A stretch of 62,557 nucleotides of DNA, filler included, from Bonamia ostreae (Eukaryota), in the NCBI GenBank assembly GCA_040357525.1. It is 30 parts of 30 records of this genome, joined end to end, with 100 filler letters (N's around TTAATTAATTAA, not from the genome) between each part and the next. Parts side by side here need not be neighbours in the genome. Positions count along the whole stretch, not along the records: positions 12,591 to 14,587 come from JBDODL010001140.1; 29 more parts are not named here. The stretch is one strand, 5' to 3'. The stretch's first letter is position 1. Every line of letters starts with the position of its first letter. Positions 2,856 to 60,485 of the stretch are shown piece by piece. A program made the translations under genes and the position numbers. Under the pieces are notes generated by a model, which did not search any database, had not been told where the DNA came from, and saw only the letters and a program-made list of their open reading frames with translations.

Positions 2856-5239
2856 TGCTAACTGGCATCAGAAGCTTAGCATGTACATAAATGTAAAAAT
2901 GTACATATATTACCTAAATCTACATAGATTATCTAAATTCACTTAGATTACCTAAAGCTACATAGATTACCTGTTCTTAATGGGTTTAGATAGACATTTT
3001 CATTGTATATAAGACGCCTCTTTGTCCGTCATCTTACTTCAGCATATATTGATGTTGAGGATATTATTTCATAAATTTCCAATGCATGTTTGTAACTATG
3101 TCAAAGATATAAATTATGTTGAACATTGGAGTATAATGAAGTTTTTGAATAGAGTTATGATATTTCGAAATAAAGTTGCTGTACCAATCCAAACAACTCC
3201 AATATAAATTGCAAAATCAATATGTTAGTTGTATTTTTATCATTCTTGACTTTTATTGTGGATTTGTCTGAATTCATATACGTCAAAATTTCGAATGAGA
3301 TAACACATTTGCTGATAAAATATGAAACTACGCATGCCCCGAGTCTCAATCAAGCATAAATAGGCTTGTCATGAATCTTTACTTCATTATTCGCTGAAGT
3401 TGCACTCGACAAAAGTATTCATCTCTCTCATGACCATGACTGTACCTTAGCAATTGAAAGGTAACTTGCTTTATATCATTATCTACAAACACAATTGTTA
3501 AAGTGTACTAATGTATCGTTGGATCAATAGATGATAATGTAAAGCATTGTAAAGTGTGTAAACAAAATACACTTCCTTGAAATATATAACCTAAATTGGT
3601 AACCAAGCGTTGGGGATGCTCACGGGTATGTTTATGCACCTGTAAATGCGAAATCGCTAAATCGGACACGATCGGCAAAGTGGATTGTTTTTCTCTGTAT
3701 ATTTTGAACTTGAGGTAAGAAATAAATTTCAATTCCTTATTTTTCAGGACTCTCTCGACCTTAGCGATTTTGTAACAACTTTTAATTGTTCTCTATATGT
3801 TTTTACATTTACATTTTTCTCATAAATATTTTCTTTCTGTTTCTATTCTTTTTTTTTTTCCGTGAATATTTCCACCTAAAAGTAGTATGCGAATAATATT
3901 CAAGTGAAATACAGTACTTTACTTTATGAAAATGAACATTTCAAATATAAAAGTCAATATTCATGGTCGTAATGAAGCAATTGCTGTAATGTTAGGGTAT
4001 GTATAACGATTTGATTTGTACATCTCTCGAAAATCTATGCAATAGTATAAGCCACCACAATAATAAACAATTCATTGTCAAAATAGCAGAATGTTTGTTN
4101 NNNNNNNNNNNNNNNNNNNNNNNNNNNNNNNNNNNNNNNNNNNTTAATTAATTAANNNNNNNNNNNNNNNNNNNNNNNNNNNNNNNNNNNNNNNNNNNNA
4201 CATTATTGACGATTTATATGGGGTAAAACAATTTTCTGGCGATTTGATTAATTCAAAGAAAAGAACATAGCAATACAATTTGCCCAGTGACAATGAAATA
4301 TCCATAACAAAATCACTCTAAGGATCAACATACTGTAGGTTAGCTGCATTTTGTAGTCCCATTCCCTAATCAGGGACAATATATTCTGGATATATTGTAA
4401 TGAATATGTGTATTTTATCCCTGTATTGAGAGTCCAACTTCTAAATTGCAGCGGTTAAATGAAATGGTTTGAATTCCAAGGATTTTCACATTTAGATAGA
4501 CTAAATGACGTTTAGTTTTAAATATAAAGGATTTCTCTGTTTCTTTTGTTTAAGCAAGTAGAATGATTCTACACCTTTTTACATTTTCCATTTCAAACAC
4601 TTCTTACTGAACCTATACCATTCTTACTTATTAATAAAGAGGATTGCTATATGTTGAAAGGATAAATTGAACTTCAAGTGTTATCCATAGAGCAATGGGA
4701 GAAAGATGTTTTCTCTTGCGAATTATTCGTATTGACACCATTCCGATTTGACGAGACATAAAATATAGATAGAAATAGATTTATAAACGAAAAATAATAA
4801 ACTAATTATTGAAGAGCAGTAAATATTTGCACGCATGAATTTACACATTTTTTTCTTTTTTGAAGGTCATTTGATATACATTGTACACAATATTCACTTA
4901 TCGATAGTACAGAATGGTTTTTACTACAAATGCCTGAGTAGAGAAGGGCAATGATAGGTTACCGTATTTTCTCTTAGTCAAGATTTTAATTTATGTATCG
5001 TTATGGCCAGAACATTGTCTGCCTGTATAGACAAACATTGATTTTTCAGCAAATTTTCAGTAAAGTCGAACTAAAGGGATGTGTTAAAGAGTATATCCAA
5101 AGAAGATTCACTTTTCCCGACAAATAGTTTACCACATATCATGTAGAATAAAATTCATACTGTAAAAACAACATTTATTACAATGAGTTGTCAGTATCTT
5201 ATCCATAGATGTTAGAACCACTCCACTTATTGCATTTCT

Positions 5240-12240: not shown

Positions 12241-12590
12241 GTTTCACCAGGTTTGAATTTCTGTTTCTGACCCATCTTTGATTTTCTTCTGCAACATCGA
12301 TTTGCTTGCCAGTAGCCTATCTCGAGTTAAAAGCTGAACATACACAGAACACCCTCTTGTGTATCAAATAAATTGAGAGAAGAACGCTAGTTTTACTTTT
12401 TGACTTTTCCTTCAGAAATTTGAAAGTATAACCAGACTGTATGACCAGAGACTTACTGAATCTAAGATATTCTGATATGCTTCATGTGTANNNNNNNNNN
12501 NNNNNNNNNNNNNNNNNNNNNNNNNNNNNNNNNNTTAATTAATTAANNNNNNNNNNNNNNNNNNNNNNNNNNNNNNNNNNNNNNNNNNNN

Positions 12591-13619
12591 CCACAAACGA
12601 ACTTTTGACGCAATTAGACGGTTTCAAAGAAAACGACAAAATCGTCGTCATCGGATCGACCAACATGTTCAAAATTTTACTTTTTAAGGCGACAAATGAT
12701 CGACAAAACTCTCCTCCGCTCTGGCCGCTTCGACCGCTCCGTCTACGTCCCCCTCCCCGAACTCAAAGCACGCAAACAAATGCTCCACCTCTACTCAGCA
12801 GGAGTCCAAACCGATGAATCCGTCGACTTTGACAGAATCGCCATCGACTGCGTCCTCAGCTCCGGAGCAGACATCGCGAACATTGTCAACACCGCCAAAA
12901 TCTCCGCCGCCAAGAACGACCGCACCGTTCTCTCCGCCAAAGACTTCGAAGCAGCCGTGCTCGACGTTTCCAACGGCGTGGAACGACAATCGCTTCAACT
13001 TGGTGCGCCGGCGCGGCGTGCGCTCGCCATCAGCGAATCCGCTTGCGCTCTCGTTTCACTGCTAACAAAGTCCTCCTCACGCGAACTGAGGCGCATTTCC
13101 ATCGTCCCGCGTGGCCTCGAGCTCAGCTCCTCGCGCAGCGTGCCTTCTAGCGAAGACGCGATGGTCTCTCAGAGCGTGGAGCAGTTGTTGGCGCGGATCG
13201 ACGCCGACATCGCGGGGCAGATCGGGCAGGAGCTGCTGCTGGGGAAAAGTCGGATCATGTCGGATTCGAAGACGCGTTGCGAGCGGGCGACCAAGTTGGC
13301 GCGTTCGATGAGCGCGGAGCTGGGGATGGGGAAGCGTCTCGGCTTTGCGGCGAGCATGTTCGCCAACGAGAACGTTGATTGGCGGACGCCATATTTGCCA
13401 GCGCAGACTCGGAGCGCGATCGATGAGGATGCGGTGGAGAGATTGAAAGAGGCGGAGGAGCGAGTCTTAAGATTGCTGAGGAGGAACAAGTCTCGTCTGC
13501 TGGCGTTGAGCGAGGAGTTGTTGGTGAGGGAGAGTTTGGGGAGGAAGGAGATTGAGAGAGTTGTTGAAGAGGTGCCCGAAGATGATTTTGAGGTGAAGAC
13601 GACAAATAAAATTGATTAA
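12591..13619 (+). CDS. FtsH/YME1-family AAA ATPase with degenerate M41 peptidase domain, 5' truncated
   Basis: NELLTQLDGF...IVVIGSTN and SRH LLRSGRFDR joined by a 22-nt intron 12667-12688; SGADIANIVN lid; ISIVPRG. HEXXH is replaced by SESAC. Confidence 0.9.
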
Positions 13620-13670
13620 AAATTTGGCTTTTTTATTTTTAGTGGTTAATTTTAAATTTAGCTTTTTTTA

Positions 13671-14144
13671 ATGTGTCTGCACATTCATTTTCGAGTTTTT
13701 GGGAAGGTTCAAAGTTTTTTGGTCAAATAGTTTCTTCAAAAGTTTGTAAAAAAATTGAATTTTTAAATTTGCAAAAAAAGGCAATTTGTAATTTTTTTAA
13801 AGAAGTGTTTTTTCGAAAATCGACTGTTGAAAAAGCGCGTTCATTGGAGATCGTCGGTTACGTTCGGAATTTGAAAGATGGATCGGTGCAAGGAGAAGCT
13901 TTCGGAAAAGAAAATGAAATTTCGATTTTGTTTTTTAAAAAATTGATTTTAAAATTTCGGAAAATGATTTTTTTAATCAATTTCAAAAAGTAAAAATTGG
14001 TTAGAAAACGAAGGTTCGCCCGATTCAAAAATTGAAAGAGTTTGTTACGAGTTTTGTCGAAAAGTTGATGGAAAGTACAAATTTGACCAATTCTATTTAA
14101 GAAAAATAAATGGCCAAGGTCAAATAAGAGATATTGTTGTGTAA
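13671..14144 (+). CDS. ACYP: Acylphosphatase, 3 exons, complete
   Basis: Spliced (13714-13802, 13930-13990): MCLHIHFRVFGKVQKVFFRKSTVEKARSLEIVGYVRNLKDGSVQGEAFG...WLENEGSPDSKIERV; catalytic Arg and Asn present. Confidence 0.9.
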
Positions 14145-14419
14145 ATGGAAAATTTGAAATTTTTTTGTTAATAAAATCATCTTTTGCGAGAACTGCTTTT
14201 TTCGAAGATTTATTGTCTTATTTATCTAAAAAATTTGATCTAAAAACATTTTTATCTAATTTAATGTTTTTAAATTGTTAAATCATTTTTTACAATTTTA
14301 TGTTTTTTAATCTAAAAATTTTTAAAATCTGTTTTTGCAAAATTTTCTAAAATAAATTTAAAATCGCAATCTGAAAAAAATTAAAAAATTGTAAAAATTT
14401 GAAAAAAATCGCAATCTGT

Positions 14420-42809: not shown

Positions 42810-43757
42810 ATGGGCGCAAATTTTTACATTATCGAAAGAGCCACCACTCTTTCCGCTTTTTCTGTCGTTTTCGTTTCTTTCATAATTTCCGTCGCGTACC
42901 GATTCAGTAAAGGCGGATGGCAAAACGTTTTAAGAAACGAATCCATCAAAGTATATTGTCGTTTCTTCGGAATGGCGTCATCTTTGTTTTTTCTGATCTG
43001 TCAAATTGATTATTTTTCGTTTTTCGGAATTTTTTCGCTGAAAATGGCGAGAATTCTGAGCAATTTTGCGTTTTCTGTTTTCGTTTTGATGTTTCTGGCG
43101 TGCGCAAATAAATTAATGGCGATTTATGTTGGGATTGTTTGTGATGAGCGGACAGGAAATAAAATTGGGAAATATCTTTGGCTGGATTTTGGAGTTTATT
43201 TTGTGCTTTTGGCAGTTTTCTACTTTTTTTGCAATTTTTCAAAATTGCCGTTTTTTTCTAACTTTTTTTATTCGATTTTTGTAGAAAAGTAAATTTCTAA
43301 AAAATAAATTTGGAAATTTTTTGATTCGAAAAAATAAAGATCGCATCAAATAGAATTTGGAGAGCGATTGTTAAACGGATTGTTTTTGGCGCTTTCCTTA
43401 TCCGTGATGATCTTCGTTTACATTAGAACGATAAAATTGATCAACATAAAAGTAGTGATCAAAATTTCAAATAATTGCAAAAAAGTGGAATGTAACGAAA
43501 TAATGAAAAATTTTAGAAATCTGATTTTTTTGTTAACTTTAACTCTTTTTTTCTTTTTGGCTTTGGTTATTATCAGATTTTCAGTTTTTATTTTTTGTGT
43601 TTTTAAAAATTTTAATTGAACAAATTTTTAGGTTTTTAATCCGTTTTCAAAAAATGTTTATTCGAAAGAAGACATTTTGTGGAATGAAGTTGAGGATTTT
43701 CTCGTGTTTGTGATTTGTGCTGTAGATTTGGCCGCTGTGAGCATATTTGCGTTTTAA
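42810..43757 (+). CDS. Orphan multipass (about 7 TM) membrane protein, 3 exons
   Basis: Successive hydrophobic segments over ORFs 42723-43292, 43368-43619 and a last exon ending TAA at 43757. Confidence 0.6.
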
Positions 43758-46819: not shown

Positions 46820-47976
46820 TTATTCAACAAAACAATTCTCCAAATCAACCAAAAAATCCTCCGGCGCCACCATTTCCGTCGCGCCATACAAAACTCCGTC
46901 GCCCCCAAAACCGAATTCAGAAACCCCAAATTTGCCGTTCGCAAAATCTTCCAAATTCTGAAATTCGACATAACTCCCTCCACCGACTACAAAAACAATC
47001 ACTTTCTCGCGCCCAAACCTCGTTCCAAAACTTGTTCCAAAATTTTTTTCTTTCTCCAAAACTTGCGGATCGATCGTTGCAAAAGCGACTTTTTTGTTAT
47101 TCGAAATCGCTTTTTCGTCGTTTTCGCTAAAACTTAAAAAGCCGTTTTCCTTTCTCGCTGAAAGTCGGTTTGTTGTGATTTCGTCGACGATCCGAGAAAG
47201 CGGCGAGAGTTTGCTTGTCGGAAGCATGTTTTTGACTTCGGCGAAAATTTGCGCGCTTTTGTCGACGACGTTTTTCCAGAGATTTTCTGTGAGTTCCGTG
47301 GCTTTGCTGTTGATCATGTTAATTCCGCCCTTTCTGAAAAATTTTGATATAAAAGTGTTTTGGTCATTGTCATTTCCGTTTGTAATCGGATTTATCGGAT
47401 TTTCGGGTTTTGTTTTTAAGCTGTTTTTTTCCAATTTATTATTATCGTTATTGTTGTTTTCATTATCGTCGTCGATAAAAAGCAATTTTTTTATGGAAGA
47501 AATGGCTTTTCCGGATTTTGCTATTTCGTTTTGTTCTGTGATTTGTTTTTTGTTTTTGAGCCCTTCAAAATATATTTCTGCGATTTGTTCGAAGCTTTCG
47601 ATGTTTGTGGGGTTTTTGATGAGATATATTAGTAATAAGCGGAGTTTGTCGTTCGTTGTTGGCGTTTCTGAAGAAAGAAGTGATTTTGCTTTCTTTTTGA
47701 AAATTTTTAAATTTGAGGTAACTTTTAAATTCAATTTTTTTCCTTGGATCAAGTTTTCTTCGACCAAGAAGAATTCTGCTAAACGGCGCCGACTAAGTTT
47801 CTTCGAAAGAGCACTTGCCACTGCGGTATGTCGGTCGGTCAAAATTTTTTGTCTTTGGATTTTTGGCAAATCGGAAATGGTCTCCAATAAATTGGGATTC
47901 TGGGATCGGTTTTTTGGCTGCGAACGAAAATCTTCTTGAATTTTTCTGTAGTCGTTCACCATTTTGCTGACTGCGT
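46820..47976 (-). CDS. SLY1: Sec1/Munc18-family protein SLY1, 5' truncated
   Basis: LPKIQRQKILTDRHTAVASAL, NDKLRLLLIY, VIVFVVGGGSYVEFQNL, LYGATEMVAPEDFL. Confidence 0.9.
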
Positions 47977-52479: not shown

Positions 52480-54249
52480 ATGGCTTTACACTCAAATCAC
52501 AAAATACTCACTCTCATTGCCAAAATAGCAATCCCGTTATCCGGCCTTTTCGGAATTTTATTTGCTGGTTTCTTTAAGCTCTTTCCTATTTTATCACTAA
52601 CTTTAAAATCGCAAGCTTCAAAAATTCCTAATTTGTAACTTTCAAAGCGTTTTCTTTCCTCGTCCTCCGCAAAGTGCGCATTTCCAAAAAAGGCGACTCT
52701 TTTTCGCCTCTTTCCGACAGCGACGGCGACGACGTCGAGTCGATTCCGAGCACCGAATATTTCAAGATCCAAGCGATCTACTCCAAAATCCAACAAGGCG
52801 CCTACTCCTTCATCCGGACGGAGTACATCCACTTCACTCCTTTCTTCCTCGTCTTCGCCGCGCTCCTCGTCTTCCTGATCGGCTCCACGAACGGGTTTCC
52901 TTCCAATAAATTCAGATATCTGTTCGCCTGCCTCTCGGGGATCTGCTTCATCCTCGGAGCGAGCACCTCGCTCATCTGCGGGGCGGTGGGGATGGCGATC
53001 GCCACCTACGGGAACGCGCGCACGACGATCAGCGCGCAGAGCAGTCTGGAGGCGGCCTTCCAAACCTCGTTCACCACGGCGCAGATCTTCGGGTTCCTGC
53101 TGCCCTCCGTCGGGCTCGTCAGCTTGTTCGCTTGTCTGGAGGCGGTGCGGGCCATCGTGGGGAACTACGAGACGGCCTGCCGCATCCTCGTCACCTACGC
53201 GCTCGGGGCCTCGGTGATGGGGCTGGGCTGCCGGATCTGCGGCGGAGTGTACACGAAGGCGTCGGACGTCGGGGCGGACCTGGTGGGGAAAACAGAGAAG
53301 AACCTGAAGGAGGACGACCCGCGAAACCCGGCGGTGATCGCTGACAACGTGGGCGACAACGTGGGCGACATCGCGGGGATGGGCGCCGACTTGTTCGGGT
53401 CCTTCGCGGAGGCGACGTGCGCCGCTCTGATCATCGTCTCGCGTTCGAAGACGTTGGGCAAGTTGGAGTTCTCGATCCTGCTGCCGCTGATGCTGATCGC
53501 GACCGCCGTCTTTGTGGCGATGGCGACTACCTTCGTCGCCACCAAACTTTGGAGGCCCAAAGTCGACAGTTTTTAATCCTAAAAAACGAAAAGGCGACGT
53601 CGAATGGTCCTTGAAGCTCCAAGTGCTCATCTTCTGCGTCTTCATGATCATCGCCGCGTTCCCCATCTGCATGGTCTTCCTCCCCTCCGAGTTCAACGTG
53701 GCCAAGGACGGAGCAGTCGAAAACATCTCCACCAACGTGAAGGCCTTCTACTGCGTCGCCATCGGGATCGCGGGAGGAGCGCTCGTCGGTTTGATCACCG
53801 AGTACTACACGAGCCACTCGTTCCGCCCGGTCCGCTCTCTCTCCGAGTCGGCCGAGACCGGCCCGGCCACTGTGATCATCACCGGGATCGCTCTCGGGTA
53901 CCAATCAGTGCTGCTGCCCATGTTCGTGCTGGGCATCATCATGTACATCGCGTTCAACTTTGGGGAGTACTTTGGGATCGTGATGATGGGGCAGGGGATG
54001 CTGTGCTGCGTGTTCACCTTCTTGTTGATCGACGCGATGGGGCCGGTGTGCGACAACGCGGGCGGGATCGCGGAGATGGCTGGGTTGGGCGAGGCGGTGC
54101 GCGATCGGACGGATGTTCTGGACGCGGCCGGGAACACGACTGCGGCGATCGGGAAAGGGTACGGTATTTCGCTAGCGTCGGTGGTCGGGATCGCGCTTCT
54201 GATCAGTTATAACCGGTTGAAGGATATCCAGAACGTGAACGTGTTCAAC
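52480..54249 (+). CDS. Membrane H+-translocating pyrophosphatase (V-PPase, K+-dependent type), 3' truncated
   Basis: GGVYTKASDVGADLVGK, EDDPRNPAVIADNVGDNVGD, TEYYT, DNAGGIAEM, LDAAGNTTAAIGKG; introns 52568-52647 and 53569-53593. Confidence 0.97.
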
Positions 54250-58513: not shown

Positions 58514-60485
58514 ATGATGAAAAAATAAGCAAAAAGATTTTAAAATATTTCGTAAACATAGGCCTACAGACTTCAAAAAAAATTAAAATAAATGAGAAAT
58601 TAATGAATTTAAAAAGGAATATTTTACTCAAGAATTTAAAATTAAAATCACAAAAAAATAAAAAATGTAATGTAAAGTTAACTGAAAGTATAAATATAGA
58701 AAAGTTAAAAAACTTCATTGAAGAACTTAATCCAAAAAAATCCTGTGGTATAGATAAAATACATACAAACATGTTTAAATACAGTAAGGAAATTAGTTGT
58801 GTTTACTTAAATATATTATACGAAAAAATATTGAAAACTGAGTCACCAAAGTTATTTAATACGGGTCTTATAATTCCTGTACCGAAAGTTAATAAAGAAG
58901 TAATTGAATCAAAAAAAATAAGACCTATCTCAATCTTAAGTATATCAAGTAAAATATTAGAAAAAATAATATTAAATGAACTAAAATATTTCTTGAAAAT
59001 AAACAAAATTATATCAACAAATCAACATGGATTTGTTGAAAAAAGAAATACATACAACAATATAATAAATCTTCATGAAGAAGCTTTTGCAACATTTAAA
59101 AACAAAAGTAACATGATAATTGTTTTCTTAGATCTAGAAAAAGCTTATGATACAGTCAACCGTGAACTAATGTTTAAAATTCTAAAAAATATAGGATTAA
59201 ATGATGAAATGTTGAAGTATTTTAAAAACTTTTTAAATAAAAGATATGCTCATTTAAAATTTAATAATAAAATATCAAGAGAACAAAGTTTTCACTACGG
59301 CTTACCACAAGGTAGCCCATTATCCCCAGTGTTATTCAATATATACATTAACAGTGTGTTGGTAAACATCAATAATGTAACTATAAGGGCATATGCAGAT
59401 GATTTGTATATTTACTCTAAAAATAAAGATATTGATATTTTAATTAATACAATGAATACTGCAATAAAAATTCTGTCCAACAGAACAAATACATTAAATC
59501 TTAAATTTTCTGTGGAAAAAACAAAAGCTATGTTAATTTCAAACAGTGTAAAAATTTGTAAAAAAATTTATTTGTATAATAAAAAAATTGAGTTTGTTGA
59601 AAATATAAAATACCTCGGTATTGAATTTGATAACAGACTAAAGTTTGATTATCAAGTTGAAAACACACTTAAGAAATGTCGTAAAAGACTATATATATTA
59701 AAATATTTATCAAGTGAGATTAAAGGCGCAAAAAAATGTATATTAATTAACTGTTACAAATCATTCATAAGATCCATTATTGACTACTCGTTTCCAATAT
59801 TCTTGTCCTTAACAAAATCAAGGATAAAAAAGCTAGAAGGCTTTCAACATAAAGCATTAACATATTTATTGGGTATAAATAAAAGATCTAGTTACTTATG
59901 TCTAATAAACTCTATAAATATTTTAACAATTGAAAACAGAAATATAAAACTTTTGTTTAAATATGTTAACAAATTTAAAATTGATAAACCTAAATACGAA
60001 ATAATTGACACTTTTTACTGTAAAAACTCTCCATTAACTATGATTTTTGAAAAGCTGAAAGTTTTACACAAACCATATGAAATTAAAAGTATCAAAAAAG
60101 AACTGATTAAAAATCAATTATTAATCTTAAAAAATAAATATAATACTACTAACGAAAATGTAAAATTTTCTATTACCATTTTTAATGCTTGTGTAAGTAG
60201 CAACATCACAATATACAATAAAATTAAATGTCTCAGCAACAAGTCATTTACAAACATTCTAAAAACTTTATGTGGTTGCTTAAGTTTAAATTATTTTCTC
60301 TTTAATTTGAAAATTTCAAAAAAAGAGAAATGTGATACATGTAAATTCAGAGAAACAGTAAAACACTGTTTATTTTACTTTAAAAATTATGAGAATTTTA
60401 GGACTTTATCCTTAAATTCCAAAAAAATTAAATATAAGAAATTACAGCAGAACTTATTTTTTGATATGAAAACCCTAAATCAACT
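58514..60485 (+). mobile_element. Non-LTR retrotransposon (LINE) ORF2 reverse transcriptase, both ends truncated
   Basis: KSCGID, RPISIL..SKILEK, QHGF, FLDLEKAYD, GLPQGSPLSPVLFNIY, YADD, KYLGI, C-terminal CxxC..ET..H finger; uninterrupted for over 620 codons. Confidence 0.95.

Follow-up and report, generated by a model that had tools for sequence, protein, structure and literature searches.

In unicellular fungi, the fourfold-degenerate sites of genes are biased towards C at the 5' end and towards G at the 3' end, a pattern whose cause was left unexplained when it was described (McLean and Tirosh 2011, PMC3315797). Strand asymmetries also mark human break hotspots, where C>N and A>N mutations are asymmetric except at the centre and C>G mutations peak off-centre (Hinch et al. 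2023, PMC7615360); which strand is affected there we take from our own reading of one ambiguous sentence. In Arabidopsis, breaks have been located to promoters, terminators and introns that are AT-rich (Choi et al. 2018, PMC5880243). These sources, and all others named below, are cited for those portions of their text that we consulted. The 5'-C/3'-G gene skew has been without a settled cause since 2011.

Here we describe a compositional halo around non-coding gaps in Bonamia ostreae, a parasite of oysters. Like the fungal skew, it biases the coding strand to C at the 5' end and to G at the 3' end, a bias that covers both fourfold sites and the choice of amino acids and reaches into the flanks (PMC3315797). 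However, the fungal skew is taken to be anchored on the start and end of transcription, whereas in B. ostreae long internal introns act as anchors too and gene ends with very short spacers show little skew. Likewise, AT skew is flat along fungal genes but flips in B. ostreae (T-A of -0.16 to -0.17 within 50 nt), where the signal, unlike the fungal pattern as given in the consulted text, also peaks at a fixed distance and hence reverses in short blocks (PMC3315797). The halo is without two defining features of the fungal gene-end pattern, namely start/end anchoring and a flat AT skew. B. ostreae is a natural experiment in this respect: with introns of 20 nt, others of 40-400 nt and spacers of every size, its genome separates gene ends, splice sites and gaps from one another. 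We found no earlier description of skew in Bonamia, nor of a halo that is anchored on gaps at a fixed distance, sets in above a certain gap length and reverses in short blocks, in the literature searched, whose coverage is incomplete; the consulted parts of PMC5638367, PMC3941110 and PMC10030826 contain nothing describing such a gap-anchored halo.

The window, that is, the whole stretch of 62,557 nt analysed here, joins 30 unrelated contigs of ~2 kb from the B. ostreae assembly (10.3 Mb, 7503 contigs) through 29 artificial linkers of 100 nt, one of which, without strand, occupies 12491..12590. The genes for FtsH, V-PPase, SLY1 and UAP56 each lie on a different contig of the window. According to their CpG observed/expected ratio (o/e), 14 of the 30 contigs are CpG-rich (at least 1.3) and 10 are CpG-poor (<0.9); the latter may be host DNA. 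Outside the window, a gene on another contig has 99% identity to a protein recorded under the name Bonamia ostreae, while a search for homologues of AMPK brought up no close relative. A Pfam search matched six of eight window proteins and confirmed the FtsH-type, Sec1, H-PPase, kinase and DEAD-box assignments. For the genome-wide analyses, we used the 100 longest contigs with at most 10 kb of each (872,801 nt, or ~873 kb of the 10.3 Mb) and excluded one, L073 (CpG o/e 0.94), which left 99 loci.

Genes were predicted with a self-trained model, of which the 594 of 865 above threshold were used and the 271 scoring <15 were left out. The introns predicted in this way have a modal length of 20 nt, a value obtained from a flat length prior, with GTT donors in ~90% and the acceptors AAG, TAG or CAG. 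RNA served to check introns in a 10-kb locus, those of the window being predicted. In this locus, spliced contigs of run X4 contain 20 introns, of which the model matches 16, places one 3 nt off and misses 3; among the predicted introns within RNA cover, 16 of 19 were confirmed, including all eight of those >40 nt. The locus is unbroken in one DNA run, with 12 differing letters, and two further runs cover parts of it; the run with the unbroken locus may be the source of the assembled DNA. Site-level p values take sites as independent, and kernel bootstraps resample contigs.

Across the genome, silent sites are G/T-rich where a strand nears a longer AT-rich non-coding gap and A/C-rich where it leaves one, in either gene direction. 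This can be seen independently of any gene model as an antisymmetric covariance between GC and G-C in 93 of the 99 long contigs (85 of 99 for the T-A version), and in 12 of the 14 CpG-rich contigs of the window as against 2 of the 10 CpG-poor ones. The right half is richer in G/T in 326 of 466 coding blocks of at least 400 nt, both on the plus strand (141/217) and on the minus strand (185/249), and in 81 of the 104 such blocks that are bounded by introns on both sides. Plain open reading frames of at least 250 codons (n=134) shift from -0.18 to +0.20 in fourfold G-C. A smaller G-C shift of -0.06 is found at codon positions 1 and 2. The coding strand has a C-rich 5' end and a G-rich 3' end (fourfold sites near starts 1001G/1327C, near stops 1379G/997C), while block cores show no sense-strand bias (G2345/C2268).

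The first-pass annotation of the window had suggested a positional asymmetry of mutation or repair and named the trend at synonymous sites, with amino-acid composition controlled, as its check. The bias persists within every fourfold family: all eight agree, with odds ratios of 1.6-2.4 (pooled 1.92), and their direction is shared by 11 of 12 twofold families, in eight cases with p <0.05. Even the interiors of tiny introns shift likewise (G/C odds ratio 0.70, p 0.003; T/A 0.82, p 0.001), and their GC content tracks that of the local fourfold sites (rho 0.45). Since tiny introns thus behave like the surrounding codons, the cause acts on DNA irrespective of coding. A strand-symmetric asymmetry at the DNA level is accordingly upheld, as it survives control for codon family, appears on both strands and in tiny-intron interiors, and leaves block cores free of sense-strand bias.

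The exon, which the same annotation had taken as the unit of the wave, does not hold up in this role; the anchor is the distance to a non-coding gap of more than ~40-60 nt. Nor do exons in general run from A/C to G/T, given that G/C takes the opposite course in blocks of 120-300 nt (836G/752C in the left half, 732G/913C in the right, p 4e-6). Beside introns, G-C is +0.002 at lengths of up to 28 nt, falls to ~-0.05 for 29-90 nt and lies between -0.08 and -0.13 for 91-400 nt, and genome-wide there is no reset at introns of at most 28 nt. Spacers behave in the same manner: those of up to 60 nt pool to -0.02 (472G/493C, summed), longer ones reach -0.06 to -0.15. The orientation of the adjoining genes matters little, with G-C values at 75-275 nt of -0.100 beside convergent, -0.105 beside divergent and -0.112 beside tandem spacers, and the odds ratio at introns (0.556) is close to that at starts and stops (0.545).

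Read away from the gap, on the leaving strand, T-A is strongest in the first 50 nt (-0.16 to -0.17) and has returned to zero by 150 nt, while G-C is about zero at the edge, reaches -0.21 at 150-200 nt and is gone by ~450-500 nt. The G-C signal has its maximum 130-200 nt from the gap. For the strand that approaches the gap, the observed/expected ratios are 0.82 for C and 1.19 for G at 75-275 nt, and 0.89 for A at 0-75 nt. The spectrum is one of C down and G up, with a mild preference for a 5' pyrimidine and with a purine shift, which needs C/G transversions besides transitions.

The best-fitting kernel peaks 130-170 nt from the nearest gap and improves the log-likelihood by 132, compared with 94 for gene-relative and 61 for block-relative position. 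In a joint model, the gap kernel takes a weight of 0.33 (bootstrap 0.25-0.41) and a gene-end kernel one of 0.00 (-0.11 to 0.10); relative position within the block adds only 0.06 to the fixed kernel, a log-likelihood gain of 0.4. With the contributions of all gaps summed, the log-likelihood gain of 185.6 rises by only 4.8 units through a gene-long term, which nevertheless persists at 0.32 +/- 0.12. Each of the four gap classes gives a positive value in the 100-250 nt bin. As the G-C signal peaks 130-200 nt from a gap, coding blocks <300 nt should run the opposite way, and a kernel trained on long blocks indeed predicts this reversal out of sample (observed 0.12/0.04, predicted 0.14-0.17/0.06-0.07). 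The G-to-C reversal of these short blocks holds in 130 intron-bounded blocks, and also when 30 edge bases are removed. Every AT-rich non-coding gap of more than ~40-60 nt, intron or spacer alike, is shown to bear a mirror-image halo, and these halos add up, such that long coding blocks run from A/C to G/T whereas G/C takes the opposite course in blocks <300 nt. An exception is found next to introns of 41-119 nt: over the 40 nt nearest to them, the G/C sign is inverted (-0.27 +/- 0.07). AT-rich patches inside coding DNA, taken as anchors, yield +0.01 +/- 0.04 (46 patches), in a size range where gaps likewise give only ~-0.05.

Two other layouts were considered and rejected. A free-running wave with a wavelength of its own is at odds with the autocorrelation of block cores, which decays within ~300 nt and never recurs, and breaks or origins in the GC-rich centre of blocks are at odds with long blocks being flat mid-way and skewed near their edges.

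The exon from which the wave was first described belongs to the FtsH gene on the plus strand. Its contig opens with a predicted upstream exon truncated by the contig start (12591..12666), followed by a predicted 22-nt intron (GTTCAA..TTAAG, 12667..12688); in this model the ATG at 12696, formerly taken as the start of FtsH, is an internal methionine. The last exon, predicted by the gene model and with Pfam matches to AAA_lid_3 and Peptidase_M41, comprises a C-rich limb (12689..13141, fourfold 54C/13G) and a G-rich limb that extends to the TAA stop (13142..13619, fourfold 43G/8C). Position 13142 is the best split, with 13G/54C before and 43G/8C after it. The C-then-G polarity reported for this gene is borne out: between the first and the last sixth of 12689-13616, fourfold sites change from C21/G0 to C2/G9 (rho 0.64, p 8e-15). 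Beyond the stop, an AT-rich plus-strand stretch with weakly predicted small exons (13620..14250) retains more G than C, with a GC skew of +0.26 to +0.42 in 150-nt windows. At 0.63, the difference within the FtsH exon exceeds that of all 98 coding blocks of 700-1200 nt elsewhere (maximum 0.47, median 0.085; 70 of 98 positive), and its gradient surpasses the average kernel in both length and strength. The polarity itself is real, and FtsH stands at its extreme.

Other genes named alongside FtsH follow the pattern to different degrees. In the V-PPase gene (plus strand), an exon after an 80-nt intron is C-rich (52648..52894, C23/G10); it is separated by a predicted in-frame 21-nt intron (52895..52915) from an exon with more G than C throughout and no trend (52916..53568). 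After a 25-nt intron (GTTTTT..AAAAG, 53569..53593), the final exon, truncated by the contig end (53594..54265), shows a strong C-to-G gradient (C18/G4 to C3/G21, p 3e-8). The C-then-G course claimed for both exons thus stands for the last one, while the former 'exon 2' is split by the predicted intron and trendless in its later part. As to the reset proposed at the 25-nt intron, there is a local G-to-C drop (Fisher p 0.005, picked post hoc), but it does not extend to a rule: a drop is found at 28 of 61 tiny introns in comparable GC-rich blocks, with a mean of 0.0, and a difference of 0.40 is reached by one of the 61. We treat the V-PPase reset as an exception genome-wide. The Sec1-family (SLY1) exon on the minus strand (46823..47962) has a gradient in the same sense, as had been noted, though a weaker one (keto trend p 0.005). 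The first exon of a supposed '7TM' gene on the plus strand (42810..43249) changes from C9/G4 to C0/G13 (p 8e-7), but the label '7TM' found no match in the Pfam search. In UAP56, by contrast, the exons are trendless.

Inside the gaps, tracts of at least five T or A fall in the first halves of introns at 854/631 (T/A) and of spacers at 1532/1239, and with such tracts masked the A/T asymmetry amounts to +0.01 to +0.02, i.e. it sits in the homopolymer tracts. The T tracts precede the gap centre on its 5' side and the A tracts follow on its 3' side, as in nucleosome-free regions of the yeast type. The A/T part inside gaps may be a selected chromatin signal, with a cause that differs from that of the G/C part.

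In a separate observation on L002-L101, the six-letter words most enriched in non-coding DNA are A/T tracts capped by GC or CG (TTTGCG/CGCAAA, TTTTGC, TTTTCG), and non-coding DNA there has a CpG o/e of 1.5 and a weak 10-nt AA/TT rhythm. In the coding blocks of the same contigs, fourfold GC increases with distance from the gap, being 0.41 at the edge and 0.59 past 700 nt; between blocks it ranges from <0.4 to >0.7.

The wave had also been invoked as the source of the GTTT...AAAG ends of introns. This does not agree with the distribution of these ends, as GTT donors make up 121 of 134 introns in skew-free cores and 671 of 746 near gaps, and AAG acceptors are equally frequent in both. Folding of tiny introns is absent among the 300 of 1014 that were folded (-0.39 vs -0.35 kcal/mol).

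What could write such a halo? It looks like a mutational scar at the DNA level, and the best reading, which we hold tentatively and at somewhat below even chances, is that nicks or breaks in nucleosome-poor gaps are followed by 5'-to-3' excision and that the DNA thereby exposed mutates with a strand bias. The gaps would be nucleosome-poor DNA where nicks or breaks arise, be they meiotic and of Spo11 type or mitotic; 5'-to-3' excision would then take away the strand leaving the gap, and the strand with its 3' end toward the gap would stay single-stranded, lose C (to T and G) and A, and be copied with errors. Composition records a net bias only, from which we infer both the damaged strand and the direction of change. 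The mirror symmetry about the gap and its independence of gene direction support excision. The halo can be said to work like a resection footprint, by analogy with human hotspots, with which it shares mirror symmetry, a neutral centre, loss of C and A on the exposed strand and an off-centre C/G peak (PMC7615360); Arabidopsis break sites, which are AT-rich, nucleosome-poor and located in promoters, terminators and introns, are comparable with the gaps of B. ostreae (PMC5880243). The human data, however, are mutations measured at mapped breaks with a peak at 700-800 bp, whereas ours are the standing composition of thousands of sites with a peak ~150 nt from the gap edge (PMC7615360), and the length of the halo is about a quarter of that of the human break footprint.

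Domain matches in the genome, all to partial genes, include the Spo11/Top6A toprim domain, Mnd1, the Rad51 family, a Y-family polymerase and a uracil-DNA glycosylase (UDG); the N-terminal domain of Spo11, TP6A_N, was not found in this search. DNA repair genes are over-represented among the gene losses of B. ostreae according to the consulted text of PMC11069148. Several results speak against excision, namely the surviving gene-long term, the inverted G/C sign in the 40 nt next to short introns, the short reach of the halo and an FtsH gradient that surpasses the average kernel. Furthermore, if breaks varied in strength from gap to gap, the two flanks of a gap should correlate, which is the reverse of what we see at low power: amplitude is not shared between them (rho -0.04, n=142; introns 0.10, n=60), a failed shared-flank test that sets the halo apart from break hotspots (PMC7615360), while the two ends of one coding block share it weakly (rho 0.18, p 0.04, n=134). 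We know of no sexual stage in B. ostreae, and meiosis, if rare, may not suffice as a source. Polymorphism on the 10-kb locus is too sparse to inform (35 unpolarised SNPs, 29 of them in coding blocks, with 13 C/T and 10 A/G pairs on the leaving strand).

An unlikely competitor replaces excision by transcription, in an extension of the idea of McLean and Tirosh: short transcripts would start in both directions from each nucleosome-poor gap, initiation would enrich the non-template strand in C and A over a few hundred bases, and antisense starts would give the 3' G skew. Short cryptic transcripts have a length scale that fits the halo. The gene-long residue and the weak correlation within blocks point to some gene-level factor, and the sign agrees with that of the skews in fungi, to C at the 5' and to G at the 3' end (PMC3315797). 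On this account, however, sense starts should far outnumber antisense ones, and yet the amplitude is the same whether the gap is a divergent spacer, a convergent spacer or a long intron; block cores carry no sense-strand bias, the link to GC4 as a crude proxy of expression is weak (rho 0.16, p 0.06), and C deamination on the displaced non-template strand should, by our reasoning, give the opposite sign. Replication, too, would be indifferent to the direction of transcription and dependent on gap length if it started at random in AT-rich gaps, with an error spectrum of its own over the first few hundred bases of the leading strand. In yeasts, the leading strand has been reported to be rich in C and A. 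But gaps occur every 0.3-1 kb, so each can only rarely be an origin; fork skew should track relative position between origins, which adds almost nothing (0.06, log-likelihood gain 0.4); the skew fades by ~450 nt and does not form long inter-origin domains; the short-block reversal is not expected; and deamination of the lagging template would presumably give the wrong sign. We therefore regard replication starts as very unlikely.

Selection could act on chromatin, on RNA or on codons. A chromatin code, in which T-then-A-tract gaps steer a remodeler and nearby silent sites are tuned to place the first nucleosomes, is improbable, if a little less so than replication starts. Its merits are the gap A/T asymmetry in homopolymer tracts, which has the order of the RSC-read poly(dT)-then-poly(dA) promoters of yeast, T tracts first and A tracts last (PMC4212969, PMC8347975), the capped A/T tracts among the top non-coding words, the weak 10-nt rhythm and a G/C peak about one nucleosome from the gap edge. 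The yeast order, however, is described for promoters in the consulted text, whereas B. ostreae has it in long introns and convergent spacers too, and such an arrangement leaves the G/C lobe in coding DNA unaccounted for (PMC4212969, PMC8347975). This lobe keeps one sign over ~450 nt where a nucleosome-symmetric pattern would oscillate, steps of nucleosome length are absent from the histograms of exon and block lengths (judged by eye), and a slippage bias could also produce the tracts. Selection on RNA or codons, be it for fold-back of mRNA or exons, for splice enhancers or for translation ramps, is highly improbable and, for the G/C halo, already largely refuted. Native exons are ~2% more stable than synonymous shuffles (p 0.006-0.009), long-range pairing slightly exceeds that of global shuffles (p 0.05), and splicing may have to do with the inverted sign over the 40 nt next to introns. 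Yet the excess of stability is alike with the gradient kept or destroyed (-2.24 vs -2.44 kcal/mol), long-range pairing does not exceed that of local shuffles (p 0.13), tiny-intron interiors shift, short blocks reverse and the pattern is mirror-symmetric in DNA. The fold-back of mRNA offered by the first-pass annotation fails in the same way, as keeping or destroying the gradient alters the folding energy by ~0.2 kcal/mol of -107 (59 of 272 exons folded). Least credible of all is an artefact of assembly, gene model or amino-acid composition. The assembly is fragmented and mixed, polarity occurs at contig ends and the gene models are our own; but the polarity is seen independently of any gene model, in plain long reading frames and within every fourfold family, the 10-kb locus is unbroken in one run (12 differing letters), and its eight predicted introns >40 nt within RNA cover are all spliced.

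Returning to excision from nicks or breaks, its full form, in which gaps of more than ~50 nt, long introns included, undergo repeated nicking or breakage with one-strand excision over 150-450 nt that writes codon gradients and contributes to the GC domes of genes, is a proposal we consider rather unlikely as a whole. If it were true, DNA breaks and the length of excision could be read off the genome sequence of a parasite that cannot be cultured, and the 5'-C/3'-G skew seen in fungi and plants might be a scar of the same kind and not a product of transcription. Whatever the cause, it is the gap that wins as anchor, with a length threshold and a fixed reach, and the kernel can be tested on variant, chromatin and break maps elsewhere. 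Codon usage and some amino-acid choice in B. ostreae depend on exon layout, which affects analyses of codon bias and selection.

We also made several minor observations. On the minus strand of L105, one predicted reading frame (126-1871) combines a region that reads in translation as exonuclease III/APE1-like with a uracil-DNA glycosylase domain, possibly a fusion of two consecutive base-excision enzymes. In L020, a 94-nt intron (3521-3614) that is spliced in run X4 has a polymorphic donor, with AT..AG in the assembly and a G at 3521 (GT..AG) in run X2; it lies within a 3' UTR, and its transcript extends to 3714, overlapping the end of a gene on the opposite strand. Elsewhere in L020 (1208-1223), a poly(A) end lies ~12 nt past a predicted stop, which makes for a very short 3' UTR. 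A CpG-poor contig of the window carries a long minus-strand open reading frame (58514-60485) whose translation reads as non-LTR reverse transcriptase-like. L102:1-2932 is an AT-rich, rRNA-like contig of mitochondrial type and the sole SSU match in a stringent search. Finally, L017:8052-9779 (minus strand) encodes an asparagine synthetase, whose next relatives, at up to 60% identity, are mostly unnamed environmental proteins.
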